Shown: positions 2,709-23,088 of the stretch, piece by piece
How positions within the stretch are numbered: position 1 is the first letter of the stretch
How the letters are laid out: the number at the start of each line of letters is the position of its first letter
From: a virus
Reading direction: 5' to 3' (one strand)
Virus record (IMG/VR): IMGVR_UViG_3300043137_000143
DNA length: 40,070 nt
Position numbers and translations under genes: made by a program
The notes under the pieces: model-generated
Told to the model about the DNA's origin: nothing
The model's database searches: none
Seen by the model: only the letters and a program-made list of their open reading frames with translations

Positions 2709-3077
2709 ATGGCAACTAGGAAGACACATAAGGTTAGAGGAGCGACGTATGAAACCGACACCAAAGATTGGTTTCGAGCAAATGGATACGACGCTGAACG
2801 ACTTGCTCGAACAGGTGCAAGAGATGAGGGCGACGTTGTTGTCCGTTCGGACTTCCTTGGTTCAATTGGGGTTATCGAGTGTAAAGCCCCAGGTGCAGGT
2901 AATAAGATTGACCTCAGTGGATGGACTAAAGAGGCGCAGTTGGAAGCCGTACACTACGCAGAAGCCAGAGGGCTTACCAGAGAACAGGTAATGCCAGCAG
3001 TACTAATCAAAGCAAGAGGCAAGTCCATAGCAGATTCGTATCTAGTATTAAGGTTAGGCGATGTATTTGGTGGATGA
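2709..3077 (+). CDS. PD-(D/E)XK nuclease, Hjc-like Holliday-junction resolvase candidate
   Basis: 122 aa with GARDEGDVVV ... VIECK (D ... E-x-K arrangement), a size typical of archaeal-type resolvases. Confidence 0.5.
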   Translation: MATRKTHKVRGATYETDTKDWFRANGYDAERLARTGARDEGDVVVRSDFLGSIGVIECKAPGAGNKIDLSGWTKEAQLEAVHYAEARGLTREQVMPAVLIKARGKSIADSYLVLRLGDVFGG

Positions 3078-3435
3078 TTTACCAGACATAGTAGCAGTGT
3101 TGAAGCACTACGGTGCCAACATTACACGTGCATCTGGTCAAGTAAATGTCAAGTGTCCGTTTCACAATGACTCCCATGCAAGTGCAAGTTTCAATACAAG
3201 ACAGAACATTTTCAATTGCTTCGCGTGTGGTATGCAAGGCAATAGCATTCAGATAATTGCTAAGAAGGAAGGGTGCGATATACGTGAAGCAAAGTCAATC
3301 GCAGAAGGAATTACTGGGGAGAGCCACCAGCAAGTACGCGGGAAGCATCTCTCTGGCGGAAGATTACCTGGAAAGTCGGGGAATCACAAGAGAAGTAGCA
3401 CGTCTGGCTCGATTAGGCGTAGTAGAGGAGCCTGA
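3061..3435 (+). CDS. DnaG-type primase, CHC2 zinc-finger part; the frame looks disrupted after about codon 86
   Basis: CPFHNDSHASASF...NCFACGMQGNSIQII is a CHC2 zinc finger. After ...AEGITGE the frame gives an R/S/G-rich tail typical of out-of-frame reading. Confidence 0.7.
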   Translation: MYLVDDLPDIVAVLKHYGANITRASGQVNVKCPFHNDSHASASFNTRQNIFNCFACGMQGNSIQIIAKKEGCDIREAKSIAEGITGESHQQVRGKHLSGGRLPGKSGNHKRSSTSGSIRRSRGA

Positions 3436-3910
3436 ACCTGGACACGAACAGTACATCGGACGGCTTAGCATTCCGTATATTACGAAGACTGGCGTTGTCG
3501 ACCTTCGTTTCCGCTCTCTTAATCCTGCCGTTGAACCGAAGTATATGGGTATGGTTGGTAGCGATACTCGCATGTACAATGTACTTGACATTGAGATTGC
3601 TGGCGATTGGATTGGAGTCTGTGAGGGCGAGTTGGACACGCTTACTATGTCTCGCTTGGTTGGAATTCCCTGCGTTGGCGTTCCTGGAGCAAACTCTTGG
3701 AAGAAGCACTATACAAGACTTCTTGCGGACTTCGAGAGAGTCTTTGTCTTTGCCGACGGAGATGCCCCAGGCCGTGAGTTTGCCGCCAGTCTCGCTCGAG
3801 AGTTACCAGTCACAACAGTTACGTTTGGAGACGGAGAAGATGTTAACTCAGCATATATTAAATACGGCAAGGAATTCATCCAGCAGAAAATGGGGCTAAA
3901 CGTTGATTGA
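3257..3910 (+). CDS. DnaG-type primase, RNA-polymerase/TOPRIM part (+1 frame relative to 3061..3435)
   Basis: SLAEDYLESRGIT...GRLSIPYI, CEGELDTLTM (TOPRIM Glu) and VFADGDAPG (DxD). The only in-frame starts before the conserved region are TTG 3257 and GTG 3284, inside the zinc-finger ORF. Confidence 0.75.
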   Translation: MLRRKGAIYVKQSQSQKELLGRATSKYAGSISLAEDYLESRGITREVARLARLGVVEEPEPGHEQYIGRLSIPYITKTGVVDLRFRSLNPAVEPKYMGMVGSDTRMYNVLDIEIAGDWIGVCEGELDTLTMSRLVGIPCVGVPGANSWKKHYTRLLADFERVFVFADGDAPGREFAASLARELPVTTVTFGDGEDVNSAYIKYGKEFIQQKMGLNVD

Positions 3911-4842: not shown

Positions 4843-5168
4843 TGAAAATCTTCGGACCATACAAAGGTAGTAAGCAGAACGGTGGGCGACCAATCTATGT
4901 CTTTAAGCGCAAGAAAAAGGACGGCACTACTACCACTACGTCTTCGAATAAGGCTCGCGTTGATTATGAGAAAGCAACGGGTAAAAGCCTCCCGAGAGAT
5001 TCGGAAGTCGACCACAAGAACAACAAAGGTCGAGCAGGCGACGACAGGATTGAAAACCTCAGAGTTATCTCCAAAAGTAAGAATGTGGGATTAGAGAACA
5101 AGCGTCGCGCAACTAAGAAGGCAGCACCCAAGAAGACTACTAAGAAAGCGGTTAAAAAGAAGCCATGA
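4842..5168 (+). CDS. HNH endonuclease with a lysine-rich C-terminal tail
   Basis: EVDHKNN...DDRIENLRVISKSKN (H-N-N pattern). C-terminal KKAAPKKTTKKAVKKKP. Confidence 0.7.
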   Translation: MKIFGPYKGSKQNGGRPIYVFKRKKKDGTTTTTSSNKARVDYEKATGKSLPRDSEVDHKNNKGRAGDDRIENLRVISKSKNVGLENKRRATKKAAPKKTTKKAVKKKP

Positions 5169-5908
5169 AAACTATAGTCTGTGTGTCCGATTTACAAATA
5201 CCTTATCACGATAAGCGTGCCGTTGCCAACCTCGCTGCTTTCATCAAGGCTTACAAGCCAACCGAAGTAGTATCCGTTGGTGATGAGATGGACATGCAGA
5301 CTATTTCTAAATGGTCAAAGGGAACACCTTTAGAGTATGAACGTTCTATCGGACGGGATAGAGACGAAACAACTCGGGTGCTCGAGTCACTCAAGGTCAA
5401 GCATATCATTCGGTCGAACCACACCGACCGATTGTATAACACAGTTATGATGCGTGCTCCTGGGTTGCTCGGGCTACCCGAGTTGGACTTACCACAGTTC
5501 CTTCGGTTGCCAGATATCGGTGCTACATACCATGAGAAGCCTTATGAGTTAGCACCTAACTGGTTACTCATGCATGGCGATGAAGGCTCTATGAAGTCTA
5601 TCGGTGGGCTTACAGCCCTTGGTCTAGCGATGCGTACGGGCAAGTCAGTTGTCTGTGGTCACACGCACCGCATGGGTTTATCACATCACACTACCGCATA
5701 CGGTTCTGCTTCTCCTAAAACTGTATGGGGTATGGAGGTTGGAAACCTCATGAAGTACAAGGAAGCAAAGTATATTAAGGGTGGACTATTCACATGGCAA
5801 CAAGGCTTCGGTATGTTGTACGTGGATGGTAAGACTGTAGTGCCAGTAACTATTCCAATTGCTAGAGATGGTTCGTTTATTGTAGAGGGTAAGGTGTGGG
5901 GTCGATGA
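5165..5908 (+). CDS. Calcineurin-like metallophosphoesterase
   Basis: Ordered motifs VSDLQIPYHD, VGDEMD, SNHTDR, MHGDEG, CGHTHR. Confidence 0.8.
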   Translation: MKTIVCVSDLQIPYHDKRAVANLAAFIKAYKPTEVVSVGDEMDMQTISKWSKGTPLEYERSIGRDRDETTRVLESLKVKHIIRSNHTDRLYNTVMMRAPGLLGLPELDLPQFLRLPDIGATYHEKPYELAPNWLLMHGDEGSMKSIGGLTALGLAMRTGKSVVCGHTHRMGLSHHTTAYGSASPKTVWGMEVGNLMKYKEAKYIKGGLFTWQQGFGMLYVDGKTVVPVTIPIARDGSFIVEGKVWGR

Positions 5909-6591
5909 ACTGGGAACGTATTAAGCCGTGGGAATACATCGTAGCCCATGTCGCTGACGAATACCATAAGAAGTACACGATGGTTGACCGCGAAGATATT
6001 AAGCAGTCGCTCTACGAATGGTTTGTGTCGCATCCAAAGAAGTTGACCGAATGGGAAGGCTTCTCCAAGAAGTCTACTCAGAACTTGCTGTATCGTTCAC
6101 TCCGCAACCAAGCACTAGACTATTGCCAGTACTGGAAGTCTAAGTCATTAGGGTACGAAGTATCCGACTTGTACTTCTATGAGCCAGAGATTGTTGAAGC
6201 GATGCTTCCAGCGATACTACGTGGCGATGTAACAGAAGCACCAGTACTTAACTTAGGTATGCCAGGTAGCCCTTCTGCGCCAGCAGAGGGTGGTAACATG
6301 ATGGCTATGATGGCTGAGATTAAGGCTGCGTATCTGAAATTAAATACAGAGGATAAACATATTCTTTACCACAAGTACGCTAATTCATTATCGTATGCTG
6401 CTATTGCAGAGGAACTCGCCTTACCTAGTGATGATGCTGCACGTATGAGACATAATCGTGCAATTAAAAAACTCATCACTAGGCTTGGCGGTTTCCGTTC
6501 CTTCTTAGATAAAGATGAGACCAGCCAAGAAGGGCAGGATGAATCCCATAAAGATGAACATACTGACGATGAGAAGGATGCCCTCGAGTAA
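5905..6591 (+). CDS. Sigma-70 family (ECF-like, regions 2 and 4) RNA polymerase sigma factor candidate
   Basis: DREDIKQSLYEWFV is region-2-like. LNTEDKHILYHKYANSLSYAAIAEELALPSDDAARMRHNRAIKKLITRL is a region-4 HTH. The start is taken at the ATGA overlap with the upstream stop (the ORF track starts at 5896). Acidic C-terminal tail. Confidence 0.65.
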   Translation: MNWERIKPWEYIVAHVADEYHKKYTMVDREDIKQSLYEWFVSHPKKLTEWEGFSKKSTQNLLYRSLRNQALDYCQYWKSKSLGYEVSDLYFYEPEIVEAMLPAILRGDVTEAPVLNLGMPGSPSAPAEGGNMMAMMAEIKAAYLKLNTEDKHILYHKYANSLSYAAIAEELALPSDDAARMRHNRAIKKLITRLGGFRSFLDKDETSQEGQDESHKDEHTDDEKDALE

Positions 6592-7131: not shown

Positions 7132-7308
7132 TTACCCTCCCGTAGAATAGAAGCCAGAACCATTGAACTTAACTGGTGGTGCTGAGTACAACCTTGACAT
7201 AGGTTCGTTGCACTTGTCACAGTAAGGTATGATTTCATCCTCCGTCATACCTCTGATGATAGTGACTACCTCTGAGTCATTGTCACACTTGTAATCGTAA
7301 CTAGCCAT
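7132..7308 (-). CDS. FmdB-family (CxxC_CxxC_SSSS) zinc-ribbon protein with a degenerate first knuckle
   Basis: MASYDYKC...CDKC...FNGSGFYSTGG. The start is set at the TAATG overlap with the upstream stop (7308) rather than the track start at 7350. Confidence 0.6.
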   Translation of the reverse strand: MASYDYKCDNDSEVVTIIRGMTEDEIIPYCDKCNEPMSRLYSAPPVKFNGSGFYSTGG

Positions 7309-7700
7309 TAGTACCAACCTTTCCGTTCGTGAAACTTCCATGCCATACAAGGCGTGCCATACCTATGCATAATGTAGGCGAAGCCTCTGTCAATCTGTAA
7401 TGGTGCTGGTGTCTTAGGGTCTAACCCCAGTATCTGTGGGATACCGCCAGCATTCTTACCCATTACCTTTACCTTATTGTACGCTTCCGTTCGCCAGTTG
7501 GACTCCTGTGTCCATAGTTTATCTAAGCACTCGTACTGGTTAGCAGCCCAAGTAAGTACTACATCTTGAGCATAAGCCTTGCTATCTTCGATAGCCCATT
7601 CCCTTACTGGTAACGGAGTCTCCTCCGTTCGGCTAACCGAACGAGTAAACGCGAATAACACCACTGCTACAACTACAAGTGCAATTACTTTCTTGGTCAT
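7308..7700 (-). CDS. Secreted or membrane-anchored SLT-like lytic transglycosylase
   Basis: N-terminal signal anchor MTKKVIALVVVAVVLFAF, then CLDKLWTQESNWRTEAYN...GGIPQ...YGTPCMAWKFHERKGWY (E-S catalytic motif and GIPQ). Confidence 0.65.
   Translation of the reverse strand: MTKKVIALVVVAVVLFAFTRSVSRTEETPLPVREWAIEDSKAYAQDVVLTWAANQYECLDKLWTQESNWRTEAYNKVKVMGKNAGGIPQILGLDPKTPAPLQIDRGFAYIMHRYGTPCMAWKFHERKGWY
7625..7640. promoter_or_regulatory. Operon palindrome, copy 1
   Basis: gttcggctaaccgaac. It is intragenic, encoding RSVSRTEE of the SLT-like ORF. Confidence 0.6.
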
Positions 7701-8020
7701 ACTGGTACCTCAATCCAAGGTCTAAGCGCTCTGTAACTTATGAGTGCTCGTCCCTCATCAGATAATTTATTGAACCTCTTGCCAGTCATGATGACACGCT
7801 CACCTGCAAGTGTACCACCCCAGATGCCGAATGCCAAGTTTTCTGGTTGCATACCTTGGTCTAGACATTCCTCCTGTGCAGGGCATGAGTTACATAGGGC
7901 GATGGCCCTACCTGCCTCTTGTCCTATCGGTGCTAGTCGCTTGGGTGTGGGTGCGCCAACTGGCACCTCTGGATACCAAGCATCGGGGTTACTATCCCCT
8001 GTGCAGTTACCTCTAATCAT
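7697..8020 (-). CDS. whiB: WhiB-like Fe-S transcription factor
   Basis: C-x36-C-x2-C-x5-C followed by GIWGG. N-terminus CTGDSNPDAWYPE. The start is chosen at ATG 8020 behind GGGGAG; the track's 8056 start is a TTG. Confidence 0.85.
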   Translation of the reverse strand: MIRGNCTGDSNPDAWYPEVPVGAPTPKRLAPIGQEAGRAIALCNSCPAQEECLDQGMQPENLAFGIWGGTLAGERVIMTGKRFNKLSDEGRALISYRALRPWIEVPV

Positions 8021-8144
8021 CTCCCCACATCCTGTCTGGTTCTCCGTCGTAGTCAACTAGGTCGTCAAGTGTATCCTCGTCAAGTTCCTCGTACTCATCA
8101 TCTAACTCGAATACATCGTCATTCAATGGCGGTTCGTAACTCAT
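8013..8144 (-). CDS. Hyper-acidic small protein (43 aa, 20 D/E)
   Basis: Hand translation: MSYEPPLNDDVFELDDEYEELDEDTLDDLVDYDGEPDRMWGDD. TAATG coupling upstream, and its end overlaps the whiB start by 8 nt. Confidence 0.5.
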   Translation of the reverse strand: MSYEPPLNDDVFELDDEYEELDEDTLDDLVDYDGEPDRMWGDD

Positions 8145-8299
8145 TACCCCTCCAATTCGTATGAAGCATAGTCGGCAAACTCCTGACCATACTCATCTAC
8201 TGTGATGTCGTGTGCCACTCGTAGGGCTTGCGCCTCGTTCTCTACATCTTCGACAGTAAGCCATTCCTCATACTTAATCTTCACTCGCATTGTATTCAT
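8144..8299 (-). CDS. Hypothetical small protein (51 aa)
   Basis: Hand translation: MNTMRVKIKYEEWLTVEDVENEAQALRVAHDITVDEYGQEFADYASYELEG. TAATG overlaps at both ends. Confidence 0.5.
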   Translation of the reverse strand: MNTMRVKIKYEEWLTVEDVENEAQALRVAHDITVDEYGQEFADYASYELEG

Positions 8300-8430
8300 T
8301 ATGCCACCTCTCGTAGTAGTAATCGGACTTGCGCTATCTTCCTATCAACTTGTACATCTGTCTGTGCGGTAAGTAGTTGCAGGTAGTCTATCAGGACTTC
8401 CCGTAACTGTTCTCTTTCTTGTACTGTCAT
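8299..8430 (-). CDS. Hypothetical small protein (43 aa)
   Basis: Hand translation: MTVQEREQLREVLIDYLQLLTAQTDVQVDRKIAQVRLLLREVA. An AGGAG RBS overlaps the upstream stop. Confidence 0.5.
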   Translation of the reverse strand: MTVQEREQLREVLIDYLQLLTAQTDVQVDRKIAQVRLLLREVA

Positions 8431-8437
8431 GATGCTC

Positions 8438-8656
8438 CTATCCTGCGTTGTGCGAGGGTACAAATATACGGTACACCTCTACATTTGTCAATTCCTTACC
8501 CCACTCTAGGGCAAGTTCTTTGGTATCGAATGGTCCGTAGTGGACAAGTCCGTCTATGGTTTGTGTCGAGGTAATCCACCCAGCCACCCACATTCCTCTG
8601 AATGGGTCTGTCTGTTCGGTTAACCGAATACTAGAATCCGAAGTTGAAGTACTCAT
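8438..8656 (-). CDS. Hypothetical protein, start uncertain (8656 or 8593)
   Basis: The conserved-looking part is MWVAGWITSTQTIDGLVHYGPFDTKELALEWGKELTNVEVYRIFVPSHNAG. The track start at 8752 would overlap the amidotransferase gene by 122 nt. Confidence 0.5.
   Translation of the reverse strand: MSTSTSDSSIRLTEQTDPFRGMWVAGWITSTQTIDGLVHYGPFDTKELALEWGKELTNVEVYRIFVPSHNAG
8614..8629. promoter_or_regulatory. Operon palindrome, copy 2
   Basis: gttcggttaaccgaat, just downstream of the amidotransferase stop (8631-8633) and 20 nt upstream of ATG 8593. Confidence 0.6.
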
Positions 8657-9467
8657 TGTAGTAGCCAACCTTACCCTTCTTGTTAGATGCGTATCGGTCA
8701 GACTCAGGTGTCCAGCATAGGCAGGTATCTTGGTACATGCCATCGCAGTCATAGCAAGTAAAGCACATCTCGCAATAGTACGGATTAGAGTCTGCTTCTG
8801 CCGTACTTAGGCAGTGAGCGCAACCAACTGTCTCGTAATCATTACTGTCATTGAGTGCTACGGCAGATGACTTACTAGGCGTACCTAGATAGGTAGACCA
8901 TGATGATTGCTTGTAGGTAGAGTTAGACCACCACATGCCCTCATTGTCCCAGTGACCAGCAGTCTCGTTGACAATGTAGCATGTCTCCTTGGCGTTAGGG
9001 TCAAGCGTGAACACTACAATCTTGCTACCAGTAGACCACTTGCTAAGCATAGCCCATACATGGTCATCATCTAGCGCAGTGACACCACCCATGGCAGGTA
9101 AGGTATCCTCTGCAAAGATACGCGTGTCACTTCGTCGGTCGCCTGCACTGATGTTGATGTCAAGGATACCGTTGTGTGCAAGGTATGTATCGTGTGAGTT
9201 AGGCACTCGGAATGGGTGACAGTTGTCCTCATTCTTGACACCATGCGTAGCAAAGCGAGCATGGAACATAGCGTAACTATCTGGATACTGCTTGCGTACT
9301 TCTAGGAACTGCTTGATTACTTTCTTGCTTGACATGCCACGACCAGTGACAATGCCATTAGGTGTGACAACGGCAAAGCCGAAGCCATGCGGGTTATTAC
9401 ATGATGCACATTCCAAGTCCTTCTTACGAGGCGTGGAATTAGGCGAGGCTACAACGAGTAGGCACAT
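8631..9467 (-). CDS. Class-II (Ntn, Cys1) glutamine amidotransferase-like protein with a Cys-rich C-terminal tail
   Basis: MCLLV (Cys right after Met), HGFGFA, HARFATHG, CHPF, LAHNGIL. C-terminal CAHC, CEMCFTCYDC, CLC. Confidence 0.7.
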   Translation of the reverse strand: MCLLVVASPNSTPRKKDLECASCNNPHGFGFAVVTPNGIVTGRGMSSKKVIKQFLEVRKQYPDSYAMFHARFATHGVKNEDNCHPFRVPNSHDTYLAHNGILDINISAGDRRSDTRIFAEDTLPAMGGVTALDDDHVWAMLSKWSTGSKIVVFTLDPNAKETCYIVNETAGHWDNEGMWWSNSTYKQSSWSTYLGTPSKSSAVALNDSNDYETVGCAHCLSTAEADSNPYYCEMCFTCYDCDGMYQDTCLCWTPESDRYASNKKGKVGYYNEYFNFGF

Positions 9468-10720
9468 TAGTTGCTCACATTCTGTTCGGCTAACCGAACG
9501 ACTAGTTTATCTATACGGGCTGATAGTTCTGGATACAAGTCTTCATGTTGGAAGATGTACCACATGAATAAGTCTGCACTAAGCGCACCTTGCGCTACAT
9601 CTTGGACAGTAAGGGTTCGGGTGTACTCAACACTGGCATGTGCTAAGTCTAATTGGGCTTTGATAGTCTCACCGTTGACAGTACCTCGGAAGATACGCAT
9701 CTCTAGTGTCTCGCGGTTGTTGGTATTGACTGCTGAATAGCGGTCGCTATTGCGGTCAGGTTGCAACTTGTGCATGAAGGTACGCTTGGTCTCTATCTCA
9801 TAAAGCATGCCACTGCTCGGTGCTGCTTCTATGCGGTTGCCGTCAGCATCACGCTTGTACTCACGCTGATAGATGTCAGTGAACTTAGCCCATTGGTCAG
9901 ATGTCCGACCTGCTAGGGTCTGATAGAACTCAGGGTTAGAATACACAAGGTTAAGGAAGCGGTGCATGTGTGCGCCACCACTAAACCCAGTGCGTGAGAT
10001 GTGGATGTGTAAGCCACAAGTACGAGTATCCCATGACTTGACTCGATAGGTTGGATTAGTACGCAACTGCTCTAATACAGTCCAGAACTCTTGCGCTTCT
10101 TGCTTGAAGAAACCATGAGACATGGGATGCGTAACTATCTCGAACCCGTTATTAAGCGAGCCGTCATTCTTAAGATACGCTAGGTCTATTGCTTCTAGTT
10201 GCTGTGCATAAGAGGCAGATTCTAACTTGTTATCCCCTGCTTCTACCTCTATCTCTAGCCCGAAGTACAGACGCTCGTTCTTGTCGGTACTATGGAAGAT
10301 AGCATCAGGTCGGTATGAATAGTCATGAATGATGCGACCAGCACCATCATCATCACACCTATCGCAACCATCGGCATTGTACTCGTCGCAATCGTCACAC
10401 CAGTAAGCACCTCGGTCGGTGCAATCCTGACACCAGTGCTCACCTCTGTCTGCGACTCCGGAAGTGCCATTCGAGTTGTATTCCTCACATGACTCGCACC
10501 AATAGGCTCGTCTCTCGGTACATGATTCGCACCATAGATAGTCACCATCTACCATGTGGAAACAGTCATCAGTCGAGCCGATAGAGTCGCAACGCTGGCA
10601 AATCTGCACGCAATCGTCACACACTATACTGTCATACTCTGTATGAATGACATTATCGGCATCAATGTCGGTACTACACACCGCACATTCTGATGTCACT
10701 TTATCATTTACATCTGACAT
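9467..10720 (-). CDS. Amidoligase_2-family (glutamine-synthetase-like) enzyme with an N-terminal array of about four zinc ribbons
   Basis: YFGLEIEVE, NDGSLNNGFEIVTHP, CGLHIHISR, ETLEMRIFRGT. Eight CxxC pairs lie in the first ~125 aa. The stop overlaps the amidotransferase ATG (TAATG). Confidence 0.7.
   Translation of the reverse strand: MSDVNDKVTSECAVCSTDIDADNVIHTEYDSIVCDDCVQICQRCDSIGSTDDCFHMVDGDYLWCESCTERRAYWCESCEEYNSNGTSGVADRGEHWCQDCTDRGAYWCDDCDEYNADGCDRCDDDGAGRIIHDYSYRPDAIFHSTDKNERLYFGLEIEVEAGDNKLESASYAQQLEAIDLAYLKNDGSLNNGFEIVTHPMSHGFFKQEAQEFWTVLEQLRTNPTYRVKSWDTRTCGLHIHISRTGFSGGAHMHRFLNLVYSNPEFYQTLAGRTSDQWAKFTDIYQREYKRDADGNRIEAAPSSGMLYEIETKRTFMHKLQPDRNSDRYSAVNTNNRETLEMRIFRGTVNGETIKAQLDLAHASVEYTRTLTVQDVAQGALSADLFMWYIFQHEDLYPELSARIDKLVVRLAEQNVSN
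9484..9499. promoter_or_regulatory. Operon palindrome, copy 3
   Basis: gttcggctaaccgaac, in the last codons of the amidoligase (VRLAEQN) and 16 nt upstream of the amidotransferase ATG. The minus strand continues CCGAAC-AGA-ATG. Confidence 0.6.
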
Positions 10721-10735
10721 TTTGTTACCTTTCTC

Positions 10736-10751
10736 GTTCGTTTAACCGAAC
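10736..10751. promoter_or_regulatory. Operon palindrome, copy 4 (one arm degenerate)
   Basis: gttcgtttaaccgaac, 15 nt upstream of the amidoligase ATG at 10720. Confidence 0.5.
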
Positions 10752-10785
10752 AGTCGAAACCATTGCGATTTGCAATAGCACTATT

Positions 10786-10956
10786 CTAACCCTTAACTAA
10801 GTTCTTGTCAATTACGGCATTGGCTAACACATCTCTAGCCTCTTCAACTACTTTTGCCAGCCCAGCGTAGCCTTGCTTGACCATGCGGTCATGCTCAGCC
10901 CGAAGTGCCTGCCTCACAAGACTAGCCTGTGCATCAGTAAACTCGACAGTAATCAT
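10786..10956 (-). CDS. Hypothetical small protein (56 aa)
   Basis: Hand translation: MITVEFTDAQASLVRQALRAEHDRMVKQGYAGLAKVVEEARDVLANAVIDKNLVKG. ATGA overlap with the upstream stop. Confidence 0.5.
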   Translation of the reverse strand: MITVEFTDAQASLVRQALRAEHDRMVKQGYAGLAKVVEEARDVLANAVIDKNLVKG

Positions 10957-11138
10957 CTCTGATAACTCATGACAGTCTCGAATACCGCGTCATCTAATTG
11001 GTCAATGAGAGATTCCCATTCGCTGACCGATAGGTCATGCCCGAGGATTTCTTGGACAAGTTGGTAGTCAAGGCGCGACTCCCAGAGAGTGTTTGTGTCG
11101 GAAACTTCCGCCACCAGTTCATCTGCGGTTGGGTACAT
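10953..11138 (-). CDS. Hypothetical acidic protein (61 aa)
   Basis: ORF-track entry. Its ATG immediately follows the upstream TAA. Confidence 0.55.
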   Translation of the reverse strand: MYPTADELVAEVSDTNTLWESRLDYQLVQEILGHDLSVSEWESLIDQLDDAVFETVMSYQR

Positions 11139-11282
11139 TTACTTAGCCTCTCTTAGTTGGCGACGAAGTTTAGTCGTCTGCTTCTCTAGCACATAGATTC
11201 TGCGGAACGCTAAGACTAGAACAACATTAACTGCGAATAGTGCGAGTGTTACTGCGAACACATCACTTGTTTGTAGGTACAT
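11139..11282 (-). CDS. Small membrane protein (47 aa, one TM helix and a basic tail)
   Basis: Hand translation: MYLQTSDVFAVTLALFAVNVVLVLAFRRIYVLEKQTTKLRRQLREAK. AAGGAG RBS. Confidence 0.5.
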   Translation of the reverse strand: MYLQTSDVFAVTLALFAVNVVLVLAFRRIYVLEKQTTKLRRQLREAK

Positions 11283-11302
11283 TACTTACTCCTTTACATG
11301 CC

Positions 11303-11318
11303 GTTCGGTTAGCCGAAC
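11303..11318. promoter_or_regulatory. Operon palindrome, copy 5
   Basis: gttcggttagccgaac, 20 nt upstream of ATG 11282, with AAGGAG between them. Confidence 0.6.
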
Positions 11319-11463
11319 AGATGATAACGCTTTGTTATCACGCGCTCACCGCAAGACTCGCACTTGCGTAACTGCCTATCATGAGCCACCAGCCTAACAC
11401 CTGCCCAAATTCAGGGTAGGCTATCCGCTAAGGTCTTTAGTCTAACATCAAAAGAAGTATGGG

Positions 11464-11607
11464 TCAAGCCTGTTCAATGTTGCTCGCTTCACGCATGGCT
11501 TGAACGCCACGCTCATAACGCTCACGCTCTGCACGCTTCTCATTCAGAATGTTGGTCTGAACTTCAAGGTGTGCGCTTAGGTCTAGGTCAATCATGTCCA
11601 TCTCCAT
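11464..11607 (-). CDS. Hypothetical small coiled-coil-like protein (about 43-47 aa)
   Basis: Hand translation: MEMDMIDLDLSAHLEVQTNILNEKRAERERYERGVQAMREASNIEQA. Three in-frame ATGs are possible; the third has GGAG upstream. Confidence 0.45.
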   Translation of the reverse strand: MEMDMIDLDLSAHLEVQTNILNEKRAERERYERGVQAMREASNIEQA

Positions 11608-11610
11608 TCT

Positions 11611-11626
11611 GTTCGGTTAGCCGAAC
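11611..11626. promoter_or_regulatory. Operon palindrome, copy 6
   Basis: gttcggttagccgaac, 3 nt from ATG 11607 (CCGAAC-AGA-ATG on the minus strand). Confidence 0.6.
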
Positions 11627-11704
11627 GAGTTATAGGTTAGCAACAAGGCAGGAGCCTCGCTGATAGACATTAGTCTACACCATGAAGAAGTTTCTGTCTA
11701 TCGT

Positions 11705-11720
11705 GTTCGGTTAGCCGAAC
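11705..11720. promoter_or_regulatory. Operon palindrome, copy 7
   Basis: gttcggttagccgaac, in the non-coding gap 94 bp upstream of copy 6. Confidence 0.6.
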
Positions 11721-11815
11721 GCTACATAGTTCGGTGGCATGTGTCGCTCGTATGTCGGTGGCATTGGTCGGTCGTTATTCGGTTTGTGTTGGTTTGTGTT
11801 GGACAATTTTTGGGC

Positions 11816-11847
11816 AAAAAAATAACCCCGCTCCCGAAGGAGCGAGG
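11816..11847 (-). terminator. Rho-independent terminator after the first leftward gene
   Basis: Minus-strand RNA: CCUCGCUCC-UUCG-GGAGCGGGG followed by UUAUUUUUUU. The one imperfect pair is a G-U on the minus-strand transcript but a C-A mismatch on the plus-strand one, which fixes the orientation. Confidence 0.8.
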
Positions 11848-11861
11848 CTATTCTCTTTGGC

Positions 11862-12488
11862 TTATGCCATAGCACCAACCTTTGATTCAATAGCCGCATG
11901 GATTTCAGCTATTTGGTCTAACTGATTCTCGCTCAATTCCTCAAAGTTCAATGCGGTGAAGTAGGCGAGAATCTCCGCGAGCGTATCTTTTGGAGCCTTT
12001 GGAGACTTCTCGCTCTTTGGGGTCTTGTTGCTCTTGTCGTTCTTAGCCTTGCGAATGGTAGCGATTTCCTTTTGGAGCGCGTCTAGGGTCTTAATCTGCT
12101 CACCCTTGCCCGCGCCTAGTAGGTCATAACTCGCGCTCGCGGTAGATAGTTGCTTAGCGATAGGCAGGGCGCGAAACTCAGCATGAAGTGAGCGTAACTT
12201 TGACCATGTAGGGAGCGCGGGAGCGTGGCTAGACTTCACGAAAGAGGACACCTTGCCCGAATCCTCTAAGCCTTTTATGAATCGCTTTTGGTCATTCACT
12301 GATAGGCGAGATTCTAAGACCATTGTCGCGGATAGATTCTCAATCGCTTTAATGATGTCGGATTCCGACTTAGCAGAAGTTGAGCATACTGAAGACCAAG
12401 CGCTTACCAACTTTGGAGCCTTAATTGTTACGGTGTTCTTTGGAGCCTTTGTTGTGTTCTTTGCTGTTGCCATTTGGGTTATTTCCAT
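11862..12488 (-). CDS. Hypothetical protein (208 aa), first gene of the leftward unit, with its own terminator
   Basis: Long ORF with a K/T/P-rich N-terminus and an internal KNDKSNKTPKSEKSPKAPK stretch. No fold recognised. The start may be 12488 or the ATG at 12473. Confidence 0.7.
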   Translation of the reverse strand: MEITQMATAKNTTKAPKNTVTIKAPKLVSAWSSVCSTSAKSESDIIKAIENLSATMVLESRLSVNDQKRFIKGLEDSGKVSSFVKSSHAPALPTWSKLRSLHAEFRALPIAKQLSTASASYDLLGAGKGEQIKTLDALQKEIATIRKAKNDKSNKTPKSEKSPKAPKDTLAEILAYFTALNFEELSENQLDQIAEIHAAIESKVGAMA

Positions 12489-12491
12489 TCT

Positions 12492-12507
12492 GTTCGGTTA
12501 GCCGAAT
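12492..12507. promoter_or_regulatory. Operon palindrome, copy 8
   Basis: gttcggttagccgaat, 3 nt from ATG 12488 (CCGAAC-AGA-ATG on the minus strand). It shares the 21-nt string ctgttcggttagccgaatggg with copy 9. Confidence 0.6.
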
Positions 12508-12625
12508 GGGGCGGTGTTGCCCGATTTGGTAAGAGAATCGTACCATGGCAAAAGGTTTTGCAACACCATAGGCGGGCGGGCGCGGGCGGGAATCTAGGCG
12601 GGCGCGTGAGCCTGAGCATGAGCCT

Positions 12626-12641
12626 GTTCGGTTAGCCGAAT
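12626..12641. promoter_or_regulatory. Operon palindrome, copy 9
   Basis: gttcggttagccgaat, 134 bp upstream of copy 8 in the control region. Confidence 0.6.
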
Positions 12642-18069: not shown

Positions 18070-21000
18070 ATGTCAGCATGGAACAAATTCACATCCGCTA
18101 TCTCAGGAATCCCTGTACTCGGAAAGCGCATTACAGGTGGTGGGGCTTACCTCAGCGATGAGGAACTTGCAAAAGAACGCGCACTTAACGATACAGTAAA
18201 GGGTGCTCTTGCAGAGTTGGACTTGATGTCTAACCCAGCAACTAAGTTGGCAAAAGATGTTACCAAGCAGGCTGCAGACTTCCTATTGGCTGGCGCAGTT
18301 AAACTTAATAACAACGTTATCTCTCCCTACATCACACGTCCAGCATCAACGCTTGGACTTCTAACTGATATTCAGTCTCCCCTTTACAAGAAGGGTCAGT
18401 ACGAAGAAGGCTTTCAGTTTAGTGACATCAAGGCTGCATACAATCGCAGTGCTAAGGTTTCAACATTCCAGGCTCTAACTAAGTCTGAACTGACACCAAT
18501 CAGTCTTCTATCTTCAATGGTGCTACCTGCTGGTGGTATTGACATGAACAAGGTTGACCTTTGGAACGACGAAAGTATCCAACAGAACTTTGTTGATAAC
18601 GCAGTTGGTCGTTGGTTTACAGGTATCGGTGACTTTGTTGTAGGCAACAAGGTATTCGGTGTTGCTGGTAAGGTTGTTGGCGCTAGTGCTAAGGCAGGCG
18701 CTAAGCCTCTAGGTCTTTACACTAAGGGTAAGACTGTAGAGAGCCTTGCAACAGACATGGAAAACGGCATTGTATTTGCCAAGACTGCTGGAGCACAGGG
18801 AACTCAAACTGTTTCTGGTTCACACATGGTCACTCTTGCAGAGTCAAGAGACTGGGGAGTTGTAGAAGATTTAGTTTCCAAGTACAGTACTAACGAAAAA
18901 CTTATCCCGCTTATCCGCGAAGCATCTGATGCTGACGCAGTTAAGGATATCATCCTTGCAGATAAGGGAAATGTTACAGCGCTAGAACGTCTTGCTGCTA
19001 CAGATAGCCACAAGTTGTTTATCGCTGGTAACGTACAAGCACAACTACAGAACAAGTTTATTCAAACTGGTGTAGTAGCACTCCCAGAGGGAGCGGCAGT
19101 ACCACGTTTACAGAAGGCATTTGACGATGCTATCAATGCAGACCCACAGTTCAAGAAACTAAAGGATGCATTCTTTGATGAGGATTACAGTCTAACTCCT
19201 GGCGGTAAGGCTTACATGCCTCTAGAGCCAATTGTTGGAACTAACCTTATTATCAAGGGTGAAGAGAAGATTCGTGGCGCTAAGACTGCGGTTCGTTCAC
19301 GCTTTGCTGATGCACCAGAATCTGCCAAGTGGTTTGGTGAAACAACACTAGGCTCAAAGACTAGCGGGCTCGCTATGCGCCTTGTGCGCCTTGTAGGGCG
19401 TGGCACAGAGGCCTTGCCTACTGGTTATGTATCTTTCTCTGGTATGCGCCCTATGCAGGCACGTACAGAACTCAACGGTTTCCTCAACAACATGAAGTTG
19501 TTCAGAGACGGTGCAGCAAAGATTGAGACATCTCCTAACGTCTATGAGCGTGTAGCAGATGTTCGTGCTCGCTTTGATGATATGTACATGTCTTCACTAG
19601 GTCAAGGACCAATTGCACAGGCTAACGCTCTTAAGGCTATCGATGCAGAAGTTGGAAAACTTCTATTCTACAAGGTTGGCATTTACGATGCAGATACAAT
19701 TGCTACATCTGTAAACACCTACCAAAGCAACGTAAGTCGTGGCATCCAATCTGTTCAGCGAAACGGCTTTGGTATTGCACACGATGGTAGCGCTATCTTG
19801 GTACAGCCTCAGACACTTCGTCAACTTGCTGACTCATACCGCTTTACACCATGGGATGACATTGAGAACCAAGTTGATATGGCGCGTAAGGCTGGAACTA
19901 CTGCTGGTAAGGCTATGGTTGGCAAGGATGCAGGTCAAGAATTTCTTGCACAACTCAACCGTGTATGGACATTTGACGTACTAGCACGCCCTGCGTATGC
20001 TTTCAAGCAGTCACTATTTGAGCCAATGATTAGCACTGGTCTTGCTTATGGACTTGACTTCGTATGGAACGATGTTATCAAGACCGCAGGCAAGGGTAGC
20101 GCATACAACGTTCGCAACTGGGTACGTGGAGTTGCTGTTCAAAAGGGCAACAGAAAAGAATTTGCAGAAGTCAACAGAGCCTTGCAAGATAAGGCAAAGA
20201 TGTACGAGAAGGCTCTTGTTATCAAGGAGTCAGCAGAAGCAACAGTAGCAGAACTGCTAACTAATGCATCTCCAGCAACCAAGTCTCAGCACTTGTCTGC
20301 TGCAACAAAGGACTTAAAAGCAGCATCTAAACTTCTAGATGATATTGAACTAGACTTGCGTACAGCAGCAGTTCCTTACGGACAGACTGCAGCGATTCCA
20401 AGTATTGCTACGCTTGAGCGTCGCGTTAAGTATCTTTCTGAGTATGAAGATGTTGATTTAGTTGCACTCAATGAAGCACAGGATGCTATTGACAACTATA
20501 GAAAAACTATTTCTAAACTAGCAACCAACAAGAAGGTCATCCAAGATGCTGACCAGGCTGTTCAGGATGCTTATGCAAACATTGACAAGATTGTCAGTGA
20601 ACTTGGTGATGCCGCTAAGCGACAAGCAGATGTACACGGTAAGACTGCAGAGTTCAAAGACCGTTACTATACAAAAGAAATGCAACACCGCATAGTCAAT
20701 GGACAGCATGTTTCAATCGACTCTTTTATTCAGGACCCAACAGTACCTGGGAAGAACTACTTCACTGCTGCTACTCGCGCAGAAGTACAGAATGCCCGCA
20801 CATCTGATATTAACTATCTAGGTGAGCAGTCAATCGGTATGCGCACAGCAGGCATCCAGCGCCTTGTTCCATCTGGAAAGGTTTCTGTAAGCGACCCTGA
20901 GTACTTTGAAGAGTTGGCTTACATTGCAAACCGTCAGTACCGTGGAGACCCGTTGATGGATTTAATCCTCAAAGAGACTTCAATGAAGGACTTGCAACGT

Positions 21001-23088
21001 TGGGCAGCAACTGATACTGGCCAGGCTTACCTACGTCAGTTTGATGTTTTTGATGCTAAGGAAGTTCCTGCTTACCTAGCAGACAAGGTATCTCTAGTCC
21101 AGCGTACGTTCCCATCATATGAAGCACGTGCTGCAATTCTTAAGGGTGAAGTTACTTCACAGCAATTGCAAAAGAACCTTGCTCCATACATGAACGACCT
21201 GTACGATATCGTTCCGTCACATCACAACTACATTGGTTCTACTTTTGGTTCAAGTTCTCTTTCTAAGGTAAATACCAAGTTTAACGAATTAGCGGCAAAT
21301 GCTTTCAGAAAACTCGCTGCATTTGAAAACCCAATTCGTTATGCTGCCTTTGATAAAGAGGCAATTGACATTGTTGCTCGTAAAGCAGATTACCTAATGT
21401 CACAGGGTGTAGAAATGACACCTGCTCGCTTTAACGCACTACGCCAGTCTGCTGGTCGTGAAGCATTGCAGAATGTAGAGAAGACTCTTTACACTATTAA
21501 TAACCCTAATCGCTTTATCAACTCATTGCGTCTTATCACAGCGTTCCCTGCTGCAAATGCTAACGCATTCTTGCGCTACGGTCGTCTTGCTGCTAAGTCT
21601 CCACAGCGTGCTGCTGGATTCATGTACAACTACGGTCGTACATTCCAGACATTCGGTGTAGATGAGAACGGTAATCCAACCAACGACATCAACAAGATTA
21701 CACACCTTGTTGTTCCTGGTACAAAGGATTTAGGTTTAGGTCCACGTGGAGAAGGAATTGCACTGAGTTCTCAGTCACTAGGATTCCTACTTAACCGACC
21801 AAGCCCATCGTTCATTACCTCGCTTTCAATTGGTAATGTCATGAAGTACTTCCCACAGAGCGAAGATGAAATTCAAGATTTCATGACAATCAATGGGGTT
21901 AACTGGTTCAAGGTTTACTTCCCATACGGAGCACCTACAAACGTAGGTAAAGCATTCGTTCCGCCTTGGTTGAACTCATTCTACAACGGTGTGATGGGTC
22001 CTGAGAGCAAGCAAGATTATTTAAGTTCTTGGAAGTCTGTTTACAACTACCATGCAATGCTCAATGAAATGGGTGTTACAGATGGTATGCCTTCTGATGA
22101 TGAGATTAGAAAAGAAGTTAAGGCTCTTTGGTTGACAAAGGCTTTTGCATCGTTCTCATCTCCATTTGCTGGTATTCCGTTTAAGACAGACACCAACCCA
22201 ATGGGTCTTACAACTAACCTGTACTACAAGTTACAGGAAAAGTACAAGGCACAGAACATGTCTAACCAGGATGCACGCGATGCAGCAGGCGAAGAGATGC
22301 TATCTCTACTTGGTCCTAAGTTTATGGTTGATAGAGTATCATTTACTGGTTCATCAAAGAACCTAAACATTCCAGCAACCTACGAAGCATACGAACGTAT
22401 CTTCGAAGATAACAAGGACCTAGTTGGTCGCTTGGCAAACATCGAGCCAGGTGAAATTGGTTTGATTGGCTTGATTACATCAGACCTAAGCCGTGACCCA
22501 GCAGAGCAGTCAAGCAACATTCTTAACCTACTTGGTAGCAAGGGATTAGTAATTCCTGGCACAAGTAAGCGAGTGAATGAACTACGACTTACTCCACAGG
22601 AGATTGAAACTGAGCGCATTAAGCAGCGCACATGGAACCAATACACTGCGGTACGCGAAGCACTAGAGGCTAAGATTACAGATGGTCAAACTCTTCGTGG
22701 ACACCCAGAACTAAAGGCAGCCCTTGATAAGGTTGTCGAGGGTCCACTTAAGGAAGCAAGCCAGGCTTGGTACGATGAGTTCCAATTCTCTGCTAGCGGT
22801 GATGCATCTTACAAGTACGCACGTGCGCTACAAGAAATTACTAGCGACAAGAACTTTATGAAGAGTCAAGGCGGTTCTACCTTCTGGAAGGACGCTCAGC
22901 AATTCTTAGAGTCTCGAGCAATGTTCACAGACATCTATCAAGCATTACCAGATTATGACCCACGTAAGGCAATCCTCAAGGACGGCTACAACTACTGGGT
23001 ACAACAAAATCTAGGTCAATGGGATGGAAACCTAAAGACAATAGTTATGCGATATTTTGACAATGATTCCCTAAAGGCGGTTAACTAA
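18070..23088 (+). CDS. Very large (1672 aa) virion-module protein, function unknown (internal/ejection protein candidate)
   Basis: An uninterrupted 5-kb ORF, about 12.5% of the genome, lying between the portal/protease genes and the scaffold/capsid genes. No catalytic motif recognised by eye. Confidence 0.85.
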   Translation: MSAWNKFTSAISGIPVLGKRITGGGAYLSDEELAKERALNDTVKGALAELDLMSNPATKLAKDVTKQAADFLLAGAVKLNNNVISPYITRPASTLGLLTDIQSPLYKKGQYEEGFQFSDIKAAYNRSAKVSTFQALTKSELTPISLLSSMVLPAGGIDMNKVDLWNDESIQQNFVDNAVGRWFTGIGDFVVGNKVFGVAGKVVGASAKAGAKPLGLYTKGKTVESLATDMENGIVFAKTAGAQGTQTVSGSHMVTLAESRDWGVVEDLVSKYSTNEKLIPLIREASDADAVKDIILADKGNVTALERLAATDSHKLFIAGNVQAQLQNKFIQTGVVALPEGAAVPRLQKAFDDAINADPQFKKLKDAFFDEDYSLTPGGKAYMPLEPIVGTNLIIKGEEKIRGAKTAVRSRFADAPESAKWFGETTLGSKTSGLAMRLVRLVGRGTEALPTGYVSFSGMRPMQARTELNGFLNNMKLFRDGAAKIETSPNVYERVADVRARFDDMYMSSLGQGPIAQANALKAIDAEVGKLLFYKVGIYDADTIATSVNTYQSNVSRGIQSVQRNGFGIAHDGSAILVQPQTLRQLADSYRFTPWDDIENQVDMARKAGTTAGKAMVGKDAGQEFLAQLNRVWTFDVLARPAYAFKQSLFEPMISTGLAYGLDFVWNDVIKTAGKGSAYNVRNWVRGVAVQKGNRKEFAEVNRALQDKAKMYEKALVIKESAEATVAELLTNASPATKSQHLSAATKDLKAASKLLDDIELDLRTAAVPYGQTAAIPSIATLERRVKYLSEYEDVDLVALNEAQDAIDNYRKTISKLATNKKVIQDADQAVQDAYANIDKIVSELGDAAKRQADVHGKTAEFKDRYYTKEMQHRIVNGQHVSIDSFIQDPTVPGKNYFTAATRAEVQNARTSDINYLGEQSIGMRTAGIQRLVPSGKVSVSDPEYFEELAYIANRQYRGDPLMDLILKETSMKDLQRWAATDTGQAYLRQFDVFDAKEVPAYLADKVSLVQRTFPSYEARAAILKGEVTSQQLQKNLAPYMNDLYDIVPSHHNYIGSTFGSSSLSKVNTKFNELAANAFRKLAAFENPIRYAAFDKEAIDIVARKADYLMSQGVEMTPARFNALRQSAGREALQNVEKTLYTINNPNRFINSLRLITAFPAANANAFLRYGRLAAKSPQRAAGFMYNYGRTFQTFGVDENGNPTNDINKITHLVVPGTKDLGLGPRGEGIALSSQSLGFLLNRPSPSFITSLSIGNVMKYFPQSEDEIQDFMTINGVNWFKVYFPYGAPTNVGKAFVPPWLNSFYNGVMGPESKQDYLSSWKSVYNYHAMLNEMGVTDGMPSDDEIRKEVKALWLTKAFASFSSPFAGIPFKTDTNPMGLTTNLYYKLQEKYKAQNMSNQDARDAAGEEMLSLLGPKFMVDRVSFTGSSKNLNIPATYEAYERIFEDNKDLVGRLANIEPGEIGLIGLITSDLSRDPAEQSSNILNLLGSKGLVIPGTSKRVNELRLTPQEIETERIKQRTWNQYTAVREALEAKITDGQTLRGHPELKAALDKVVEGPLKEASQAWYDEFQFSASGDASYKYARALQEITSDKNFMKSQGGSTFWKDAQQFLESRAMFTDIYQALPDYDPRKAILKDGYNYWVQQNLGQWDGNLKTIVMRYFDNDSLKAVN

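Follow-up and report, generated by a model that had tools for sequence, protein, structure and literature searches.

In this study we analysed two adjacent genes on the minus strand of a viral DNA of 40,070 nucleotides (nt), the IMG/VR record IMGVR_UViG_3300043137_000143; this whole stretch is called the window below. Family comparison showed that the first gene product is, as judged by its sequence, an enzyme of the Amidoligase_2 family whose N-terminus carries an array of four predicted Cys4 fingers. The second gene product was likewise shown to be a predicted N-terminal-nucleophile (Ntn) hydrolase with Cys as the nucleophile (Cys1), that is, a protein of the class-II glutamine amidotransferase (GATase) type. 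We tentatively favour, with a confidence a little short of even, the reading that the two proteins form a glutamine-dependent, ATP-driven amidating or ligating complex and that the acidic finger array recruits a protein target. The first-pass annotation of this DNA had interpreted the genes as a coupled amidoligase and GATase pair, and our results support it as far as the identity of the two proteins and their coupling are concerned. The pair is not new in kind; it is a well-preserved but ordinary copy of its module.

The open reading frame (ORF) scan placed the gene of the amidoligase, which belongs to the Pfam Amidoligase_2 family, at 9467..10720 on the minus strand (417 aa). The gene of the class-II (Ntn, Cys1) GATase-like hydrolase was found at 8631..9467 on the same strand (278 aa). 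The two genes overlap at a TAATG stop/start sequence (9465..9469, minus strand). That is, the TAA stop codon of the amidoligase lies at 9469-9467 and the ATG start codon of the GATase at 9467-9465, with one base, 9467, in common. On the minus strand the junction reads ...AGCAACTAATGTGCC..., with AGCAAC-TAATG-TGCC around the overlap. Both the ORF scan and the junction sequence agreed with the first-pass annotation, which had reported two minus-strand genes joined by TAATG at 9467. The overlap is consistent with translational coupling of the amidoligase and the GATase, and relatives mostly show a similar spacing, with the start of the GATase no farther than about -6 to +17 nt from the end of the amidoligase. 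Megablast of positions 8400-10900 against 50,697 phage records gave zero matches, so only comparison at the protein level was informative. PADLOC matched neither of the two proteins.

The assignment of the 417-aa protein was then examined with profiles. The Amidoligase_2 profile PF12224 matched it with 38.1 bits (gathering cut-off 22; E=2.1e-9), and the match spanned aa 180-362, which correspond to positions 55-243 of the 245 positions of the model. The family membership that had been proposed from motifs was thereby confirmed. The protein also matched the PHROGs families phrog_16683, phrog_22302 and phrog_2443, which are annotated 'amidoligase'. More than 1,500 metagenomic homologues were found, and the PF12224 domain was precomputed on all 120 amidoligase homologues among the matches listed. 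The motifs quoted in the first-pass annotation, YFGLEIEVE, NDGSLNNGFEIVTHP, CGLHIHISR and ETLEMRIFRGT, were all present in the translation, as were those quoted for the GATase.

The catalytic domain of the amidoligase (aa 129-417; 9470..10336, minus strand) contains residues that are invariant across distant homologues. We compared the protein with Marvin gp105, MEP402 gp06 and the MW202733 protein (23-34% identity). Invariant in this comparison were R137, G154, E156, E158, D186, G187, S188, E194, H238, H240, S242 and R243, and furthermore R327, Y328, N332, N335, E340 and R342. These residues make up the motifs G-x-E-x-E, D-G-S...E, G-x-H-x-H-x-S-R and N...T-x-E-x-R-x-F, and the acidic, His and Arg motifs were also invariant across 72 close homologues.

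The translation of the second gene contains MCLLV, HGFGFA, HARFATHG, CHPF and LAHNG, followed in the tail by CAHC, CEMCFTCYDC and CLC. The Pfam scores of this protein stayed below the cut-offs (GATase_6, 22.5 against 27; GATase_4, 18.3 against 23; GATase_2, 14.9 against 19.9), and some of its close homologues scored above a cut-off. The homologue from Plantactinospora locus L085 reached 23.9 with GATase_4 (cut-off 23), and the Firmicutes partner L095 reached 48.1 with GATase_6 (cut-off 27). Furthermore, phrog_25883 matched the GATase with E=4e-38, and a profile of four distant homologues matched the glutaminase domain of GlmS (1xff) with E=1.7e-7 and PurF with 2.5e-4. When the structural model was searched with Foldseek, 29 PDB matches had E<=1e-3, and all of these were GlmS, GFAT, PurF or 1te5; EgtC came next. 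The TM-scores of these matches were just 0.3-0.43, which is explained by the moderate quality of the AlphaFold2 (AF2) model.

Cys2, Arg71 and Asn99-Gly100 of the GATase align to Cys1, Arg73 and Asn98-Gly99 of GlmS. Across distant homologues M1, C2, R71, T74, H75, G76, N82, H84, P85, F86, H98, N99, G100, D114 and T115 were invariant; M1 and C2 were also invariant in 71 close homologues, and the Met-Cys start was seen again in the partner ORFs of cellular loci. Taking both proteins of the pair together, the homologues that keep the catalytic residues invariant have 23-38% identity. The class-II identity claimed by the first-pass annotation holds despite the missed Pfam cut-offs, because the profile, the fold and the catalytic residues agree. 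Since Cys2, Arg71 and Asn99-Gly100 match GlmS and are invariant, as is Asp114, the GATase looks catalytically competent, with a predicted pocket for free glutamine or for a gamma-glutamyl head group.

The N-terminal Cys-rich module of the amidoligase (aa 1-128; 10337..10720, minus strand) contains exactly eight CxxC pairs, which would form four Cys4 metal sites. The pairs start at residues 12, 34, 41, 64, 75, 97, 108 and 119, and the spacers between them are 18, 3, 19, 7, 18, 7 and 7 residues long. The unit R-x-AYWC-xx-C-x-EYN occurs twice, as RRAYWCESCEEYN and as RGAYWCDDCDEYN. Eight pairs within the first ~125 aa had been counted in the first-pass annotation, and this count was correct. In 72 homologues (69-89% identity) all 16 Cys residues of the pairs were invariant, and the lone Cys53 was variable. 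Because the paired Cys residues are all kept and the unpaired one is not, the array is evidently not due to chance. In the JGI record of the phage the amidoligase is annotated as a product of 218 aa, that is, with its start at Met200, and a Logan assembly has the full 417 aa; the Cys-rich N-terminus may be absent from one public annotation. The long form is supported, because conservation runs from Met1.

The AF2 model had predicted local distance difference test (pLDDT) values of 84-94 over residues 10-120 and showed repeated hairpin-hairpin-helix units. The sites predicted from this model are C12/15 with C34/37, C41/44 with C64/67, C75/78 with C97/100, and C108/111 with C119/122, all of the LIM/treble-clef kind. 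LIM and treble-clef fingers likewise have tandem Cys4 sites, the spacing CxxC-x18-19-CxxC and a beta-hairpin followed by a helix. In contrast to LIM, the repeat of the present array, WCxxC...AYWCxxCxEY, is a distinct prokaryotic or viral module. The array matched LIM (E=0.14, Foldseek) and the Rpb12 zinc ribbon (E=0.11) weakly, a viral relative in BFVD carries the label 'LIM domain containing protein', and zero zinc-finger families of Pfam were matched. Thus, of the 'zinc ribbons' named in the first-pass annotation, the conserved paired CxxC spacing of Cys4 type stands, but in appearance the fingers are closer to LIM/treble-clef modules than to zinc ribbons of the classical kind.

The Cys clusters might instead be Fe-S, redox-active or metal-sequestering (metallothionein-like) sites and not structural zinc fingers. 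Two observations speak for such a role: a WhiB Fe-S regulator is among the gene products of the phage, and a BFVD match is labelled 'prokaryotic metallothionein' (E=0.015). We nevertheless regard it as improbable, since the regular CxxC-x18/19-CxxC spacing, the confident hairpin and helix model and the weak LIM and zinc-ribbon matches fit Cys4 zinc fingers.

The finger array is acidic, with 33 Asp or Glu residues against 7 Lys or Arg residues and an isoelectric point (pI) of 4.05. Because of this strong acidity, binding of DNA or RNA by the array is unlikely. Homologues from Plantactinospora, Coriobacteriia and many Clostridia have 6-8 CxxC pairs ahead of the catalytic domain. Zinc-finger N-termini are common throughout this clade of amidoligases and not peculiar to the phage studied here. 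An exhaustive search with the finger module alone gave 62 representative clusters. The finger repeat, in the form …[DE]TWCxxC…A/FxCxxCEEYH…, was also seen as C-terminal arrays of about 5-10 copies on the proteins P0245, P0256, P0266, P0268 and P0296 (and P0280 and P0291). The N-terminal domains of these proteins are of a 'FAHVS…GPxSCM…HPxRAY' type and a second, 'GGxSCMT…DRIYP' type, and they had no Pfam match. By its sequence, the repeat looks like an undescribed mobile module that is carried on at least two other uncharacterised domains.

The GATase has a Cys cluster of its own at the C-terminus (aa 214-253; 8709..8828, minus strand), whose eight Cys residues are predicted to form two metal sites. 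In the 71 GATase homologues Cys 216, 219, 232, 235, 238 and 251 were invariant, and Cys 241 and 249 were kept in at least 90%; in viral GATase loci, 80 of 80 had 8-9 tail Cys residues. AF2 confidence was low over this tail. As with the finger array, the tail is strongly acidic, both modules having a pI of about 4, so that for the tail, too, binding of nucleic acid is unlikely. The tail was common to Marvin gp106, L084 and the Plantactinospora locus L085 and was absent elsewhere, so that its distribution is narrower than that of the finger array. The first-pass annotation had proposed, as one option, that the two Cys modules dock with each other. This proposal was weakened by 19 loci in which the amidoligase keeps 5-8 CxxC pairs and the GATase lacks the 8-Cys tail. 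Since the tail is absent from these loci, the two decorations are not an obligate docking pair, and mutual docking as a general rule was rejected.

We next consider how constantly the two genes occur together. Of 80 IMG/VR loci collected by way of the GATase, 78 were testable, and all 78 have the amidoligase as the next gene upstream, in the same orientation; the remaining 2 end at a contig edge. In the cellular loci, a GATase-like ORF, defined as a downstream ORF beginning with Met-Cys and having GATase motifs or hidden Markov model matches, lay directly downstream of the amidoligase in at least 46 of 60 testable cases. The pair is also adjacent in Marvin, MEP402 and MW202733. The survey that the first-pass annotation had suggested thus supported the co-conservation of the pair. 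In metagenomes each protein of the pair formed more than 1,300 clusters at 90% identity, and at least 509 IMG/VR stretches encode relatives.

Neighbour clustering of 26 diverse loci showed that only the amidoligase and the GATase are common to them. No third co-conserved gene appeared in this clustering or in a Pfam census of 133 neighbouring ORFs. In the census only mobile-element genes recurred (Resolvase in 18), with no other enzyme partner, and gamma-glutamyl cyclotransferase was absent from the 133 neighbours of this amidoligase subfamily. The hosts or carriers of the module include Mycobacterium, Methylophilales, Plantactinospora, Coriobacteriia, Victivallis and Clostridia.

We favour the amidating complex, tentatively as said above, because the two genes are strictly adjacent with a one-base overlap, the glutamine pocket is intact, a third partner is lacking and the host range is wide. 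The two proteins would then work as partners in a single, self-contained system for amide formation, and the phage would carry this system as accessory cargo in its early leftward operon. After removal of Met, Cys2 of the GATase would attack the side-chain amide of glutamine to form a Cys2 thioester, and ammonia would be released. The amidoligase would use ATP to activate a carboxylate on the substrate as an acyl-phosphate, and that ammonia or another amine would capture the activated carboxylate, resulting in glutamine-dependent amidation or ligation of the target. Glutamine synthetase-like ligases are known to form acyl-phosphate intermediates, on which ammonia or an amine then acts as the nucleophile. 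As for the acidic finger array, it would most likely recruit a protein target and not nucleic acid, and the overlapping genes would give roughly matched co-expression of the two-protein complex. The broad host range implies a universal donor and a universal target. Glutamine would be the donor, since it is probably the sole gamma-glutamyl amide common to all hosts, and the target would be host-universal and probably a protein.

Class-II GATases require a free N-terminal Cys. This requirement accounts for the fact that the GATase has a downstream gene of its own and is not fused to the C-terminus of the ligase. In a metagenome-assembled genome of Atopobiaceae (L089, 5173-7218), the finger array, the amidoligase and the GATase were found in one ORF of 681 aa with an internal ...S-MCIIV junction. 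This ORF is suggestive of tight linkage. If the fusion is real, Cys1 would have to be freed by internal initiation or by self-cleavage; alternatively, the ORF may be a frameshift or assembly artefact.

The artefact option for this ORF is one of several points that weigh against the amidating complex. In the Foldseek search of the amidoligase against PDB, YbdK (1r8g) gave E=0.058 with a probability of 0.82 and several glutamine synthetases gave E=0.07-0.3; these ranked near the top of the matches, but none of them is significant. The alignment with E. coli YbdK by hhalign had a probability below 1%, with the GxHxH motif alone aligned, and was not significant either. A sequence search of PDB found zero solved structures related to the amidoligase, and the AlphaFold model of its catalytic domain was mediocre; its presumed glutamine synthetase-like fold is taken from the Pfam family and not from this analysis. 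The probable equivalence of D114 of the GATase to D123 of GlmS comes from motif likeness (SDTRI against TDTEV) and not from a printed alignment. Stand-alone class-II GATase-like proteins of known function, such as EgtC, are gamma-glutamyl hydrolases and not ammonia donors, and the amidoligase partner is reportedly described in Pfam as a 'thiol peptidase'. Finally, in the literature, including that from 2022 onward, we found no biochemical characterisation and no defined substrate for any Amidoligase_2 member.

Some of these points would suit a system resembling EgtA/EgtC, with two enzymes that act in sequence or in opposition. Here the amidoligase would join glutamate or a peptide, through an amide bond, to some metabolite or protein, and the GATase would trim or remove a gamma-glutamyl group as a 'thiol peptidase' without supplying ammonia. 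We consider this main rival possible but rather doubtful. In ergothioneine synthesis (general knowledge), EgtA is a glutamine synthetase-like carboxylate-amine ligase and EgtC a stand-alone class-II GATase-like Cys1 hydrolase, a pairing like the one predicted here. EgtC (structures 4zfj, 4zfk and 4zfl), a gamma-glutamyl amidohydrolase, is among the structural matches of our GATase, which stands alone as do EgtC and PA1307 (1te5). In other prophages and phages, moreover, papers report a gamma-glutamyl cyclotransferase beside amidoligases, pointing to gamma-glutamyl chemistry in the wider family. However, EgtA and EgtC catalyse separate steps with EgtB between them, within a five-gene pathway that has no zinc-finger modules, and such partners were not found at the loci of the present module. 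To make and break one bond with two genes would be futile without an intervening step, and no third gene is co-conserved. Furthermore, the cyclotransferase was not among the 133 neighbours of this subfamily, and the hosts probably share no gamma-glutamyl compound except glutamine.

The amidating complex can also be compared with MurT/GatD (PMC3267633; general knowledge), in which two proteins, a ligase and a stand-alone glutaminase that are co-transcribed, amidate a carboxylate with glutamine and ATP. It is an analogy only, since by its fold MurT belongs to the Mur ligases, and GatD belongs to the class-I (triad) GATases, unlike the two proteins studied here. The example also raises the idea that the pair amidates the envelope, for instance a carboxylate of peptidoglycan or its precursor, and so blocks superinfection or alters lysis; this role has been cited for phiEco32. 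The secondary literature credits Iyer et al. 2009 with this suggestion. The leftward operon that holds the pair also includes a transglycosylase-like gene (7308-7700). Yet neither protein sequence has an evident signal peptide or membrane segment, the envelopes of the hosts are very different, and it is not obvious what an acidic finger array would do on a precursor that is linked to a lipid. In addition, six small genes separate the transglycosylase from the pair, and relatives without the pair keep the transglycosylase. Envelope amidation is thus hardly probable.

If the amidating complex does act on a host protein, it might serve as a portable protein-modifying weapon. That is, early in infection the finger array would dock on a basic host protein that is conserved across phyla, and the pair would covalently amidate this protein or add an amino acid to it. 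We think this extension unlikely as it stands. If it were true, the pair would represent a new class of phage enzyme for host takeover or counter-defence, and the docked protein could be a nucleoid, transcription, translation or immune component that is disabled or reprogrammed. In that case the finger repeat, which other unannotated proteins carry as well, would serve all of them as a common module for targeting.

The prediction of a phage amidoligase and GATase module reportedly goes back to Iyer, Abhiman, Burroughs and Aravind in 2009. The module has been recognised in phages for more than 15 years, and it turns out to be very common. The first-pass annotation had named both a prediction by comparative genomics and the lack of a known phage example with a defined substrate, and this agrees with the literature. 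The papers that trace the prediction to Iyer et al. 2009 cover several phage groups. They note the two genes in LUZ24-like Pseudomonas phages, the OM43 phages MEP401/402, Poseidoniales viruses, a Planctomycetes phage and Clostridium prophages, and they also cite the Marvin genome paper. The roles proposed there, cell-wall modification, secondary-metabolite synthesis and nitrogen metabolism, are predictions only. In modules of this type (LUZ24/tf/UFV-P2, phiEco32, MEP401/402 and Poseidoniales viruses) the same two families are adjacent and co-directional and lie in early or accessory regions. MEP402 gp06 and gp07 are direct homologues of our amidoligase and GATase, respectively, but the MEP402 GATase lacks the 8-Cys tail. 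The LUZ24-type loci have extra ATP-grasp and COOH-NH2_lig genes and a GATase of 486 aa, whereas the present module has two genes and a short GATase.

The closest counterpart in an isolated phage is gp105/gp106 of Mycobacterium phage Marvin (cluster S), with 30-34% identity over 66-92% of each protein. The gene order is the same, the N-terminus of gp105 is Cys-rich, and gp106 shares the CxxC...CxxCxxCxxC...CxC tail. In contrast to our pair, gp105 has 3 N-terminal CxxC pairs instead of 8 and a long C-terminal extension, and the two Marvin genes are 79 nt apart and do not overlap; both are annotated 'glutamine amidotransferase domain protein'. The first-pass annotation had presented the pair as a candidate for an uncharacterised enzymatic system. 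This stands in so far as no substrate was found, but the novelty was overrated, because Marvin has the same architecture including the Cys-rich decorations. The glutaminase domains of GlmS, PurF and GFAT share with our GATase the N-terminal Cys nucleophile, the HxRxATxG and HNG motifs and the fold. In those enzymes, however, the GATase domain is fused N-terminally to a synthase, while ours is separate, lies downstream of the ligase and has an added Cys cluster, and the likeness in sequence is limited to about 90 residues.

The copy studied here brings no new principle; what the survey shows is a self-contained, portable and dispensable module, whose strongly constrained acidic finger array probably specifies the target. 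Marvin gp105/gp106 is a genetically tractable orthologue with the same decorations. If one member were solved, thousands of phage and prophage genes could be annotated, and a new covalent chemistry of host modification might be revealed.

The dispensability of the module was seen from the terminase relatives of the phage. There are about 600 of these, and 19 of them (82-98% identity of the large terminase) had enough upstream sequence to be counted; the pair is at the same place in 17 of the 19. The other two, the sequences L227 (5400-9000) and L234 (4650-9000), whose terminase is 82-83% identical, keep the sigma, zinc-ribbon, transglycosylase and WhiB flanks, and unrelated ORFans, which give no functional hint, replace the pair and its small neighbours. 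Because the flanks are kept around these ORFans, the region from WhiB to the terminase is a variable cargo slot. In bacterial loci L085-L143 the pair typically lies beside a serine recombinase or resolvase, and other neighbours are relaxase, DUF1643, DUF932, D5_N and YqaJ. This suggests that the cellular copies sit near the ends of integrative elements or prophages. Taken together, the module is a self-contained, mobile and dispensable cargo unit found across at least four bacterial phyla. In some Clostridia loci, ORFs of 1,200-1,800 aa were seen just upstream of the pair.

The same setting bears on the idea, adopted by some genome papers, that the genes are auxiliary metabolic genes that boost the nitrogen or glutamine metabolism of the host during infection. 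For the present pair this is very improbable. Neither protein closely resembles the housekeeping glutamine synthetase, GOGAT or GlmS. In NCBIfam the amidoligase had no match, and the GATase had only GlmS and PurF matches far below threshold (27 bits, where the cut-offs are above 380). The dedicated finger arrays, which are strongly constrained, also argue against a metabolic role, as does the position of the pair in a variable early cargo slot, its absence from close relatives and the fact that the cellular copies travel with recombinases and mobile-element genes.

The window is the genome of a tailed phage of about 40 kb with a G+C content of 44-48%. The left arm, on the plus strand, encodes an exonuclease, a DnaB-like helicase, RusA, a primase, a metallophosphoesterase and a sigma-like protein (5896-6591). 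The right arm, also on the plus strand, begins with the terminase (13168), followed by the portal and the major head protein. Between the arms, from about 12.5 to 6.6 kb, lies the leftward operon, which consists mostly of small ORFs and holds the pair. Its other members include a gene of the WhiB family (7697-8056; 37 bits in Pfam, cut-off 23.6), the transglycosylase-like gene and an FmdB-type zinc-ribbon gene. Since the phage encodes WhiB, an actinobacterial host is suggested.

A palindrome, TTCGGTTAnCCGAA, occurs with up to 2 mismatches at 9 sites, all of them in 7628-12640 and thus in the leftward operon only, where 0.6 were expected. The sites are at 7628, 8615, 9485, 10737, 11304, 11612, 11706, 12493 and 12627. 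The palindrome is 14-16 bp long and has the form (G)TTCGGYTARCCGAAC, and several copies run on as ...CCGAACAGAATG. For most of the copies a plausible start codon follows 16-21 nt downstream, and the sequence in between is rich in purines. As the first-pass annotation had stated, a copy precedes each gene of the pair. The copy at 10737..10750 (minus strand) is 16 nt upstream of the amidoligase ATG. The copy at 9485..9498 (minus strand) is 17 nt upstream of the GATase ATG and lies within the amidoligase coding sequence, where it encodes VRLAEQ. A further copy at 8615..8628 (minus strand) is 3 nt past the GATase stop codon, and the small ORF that comes next (ATG 8593) starts 21 nt downstream of it. 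Exact copies were found at matching relative positions in the close relatives L008, L014-L016, L027-L029 and L057, and the copy inside the gene has exact counterparts at the same relative position in L016 and L027-L029.

Mycobacteriophages have start-associated or 'stoperator' repeats that this pattern resembles, and the palindrome may act on either DNA or RNA. An unusually stable RNA hairpin was not supported, since the z-scores of the three copies flanking the pair were -0.2 to -0.8. In the transglycosylase-like gene (7308-7700, minus strand) the palindrome at 7628-7641 lies inside the 5' coding region, just past a hydrophobic N-terminal segment. The true start of this gene may be downstream, or the palindrome may be tolerated in coding sequence, as at the 3' end of the amidoligase gene.

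Just upstream of the pair there is a sigma-70-like promoter match at 10783..10811 (minus strand; TTGACA-17-TAGAAT, 11/12 consensus), and the palindrome at 10737..10750 sits between it and the amidoligase ATG. Because of this near-consensus match, the pair may be transcribed as a unit by itself. In the region as a whole, however, promoter-like sites were not more frequent than expected by chance, so that the site at 10783..10811 is to be read as a consensus match only. A second sigma-70-type match lies at 8463-8491 (minus strand; TTGACA-17-TATATT, 11/12 consensus).

Some further observations were made in the window. The calcineurin-like metallophosphoesterase (5165-5908, plus strand) accompanies the amidoligase and the GATase, and papers on OM43 phages and on a Poseidoniales virus list the same trio; this company may be a coincidence or a recurrent accessory set. 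The ORFs 3061-3435 and 3257-3910, both on the plus strand, overlap in different frames and both match DNA primase families. The first (phrog_360) corresponds to positions 30-106 of phrog_47 and the second (phrog_849) to positions 138-335, and possible explanations are a split primase, a start that was called wrongly and a programmed frameshift. In the structural module, an ORF of 1,672 aa (18070-23088, plus strand) has phrog_10618, of unknown function, as its sole match.

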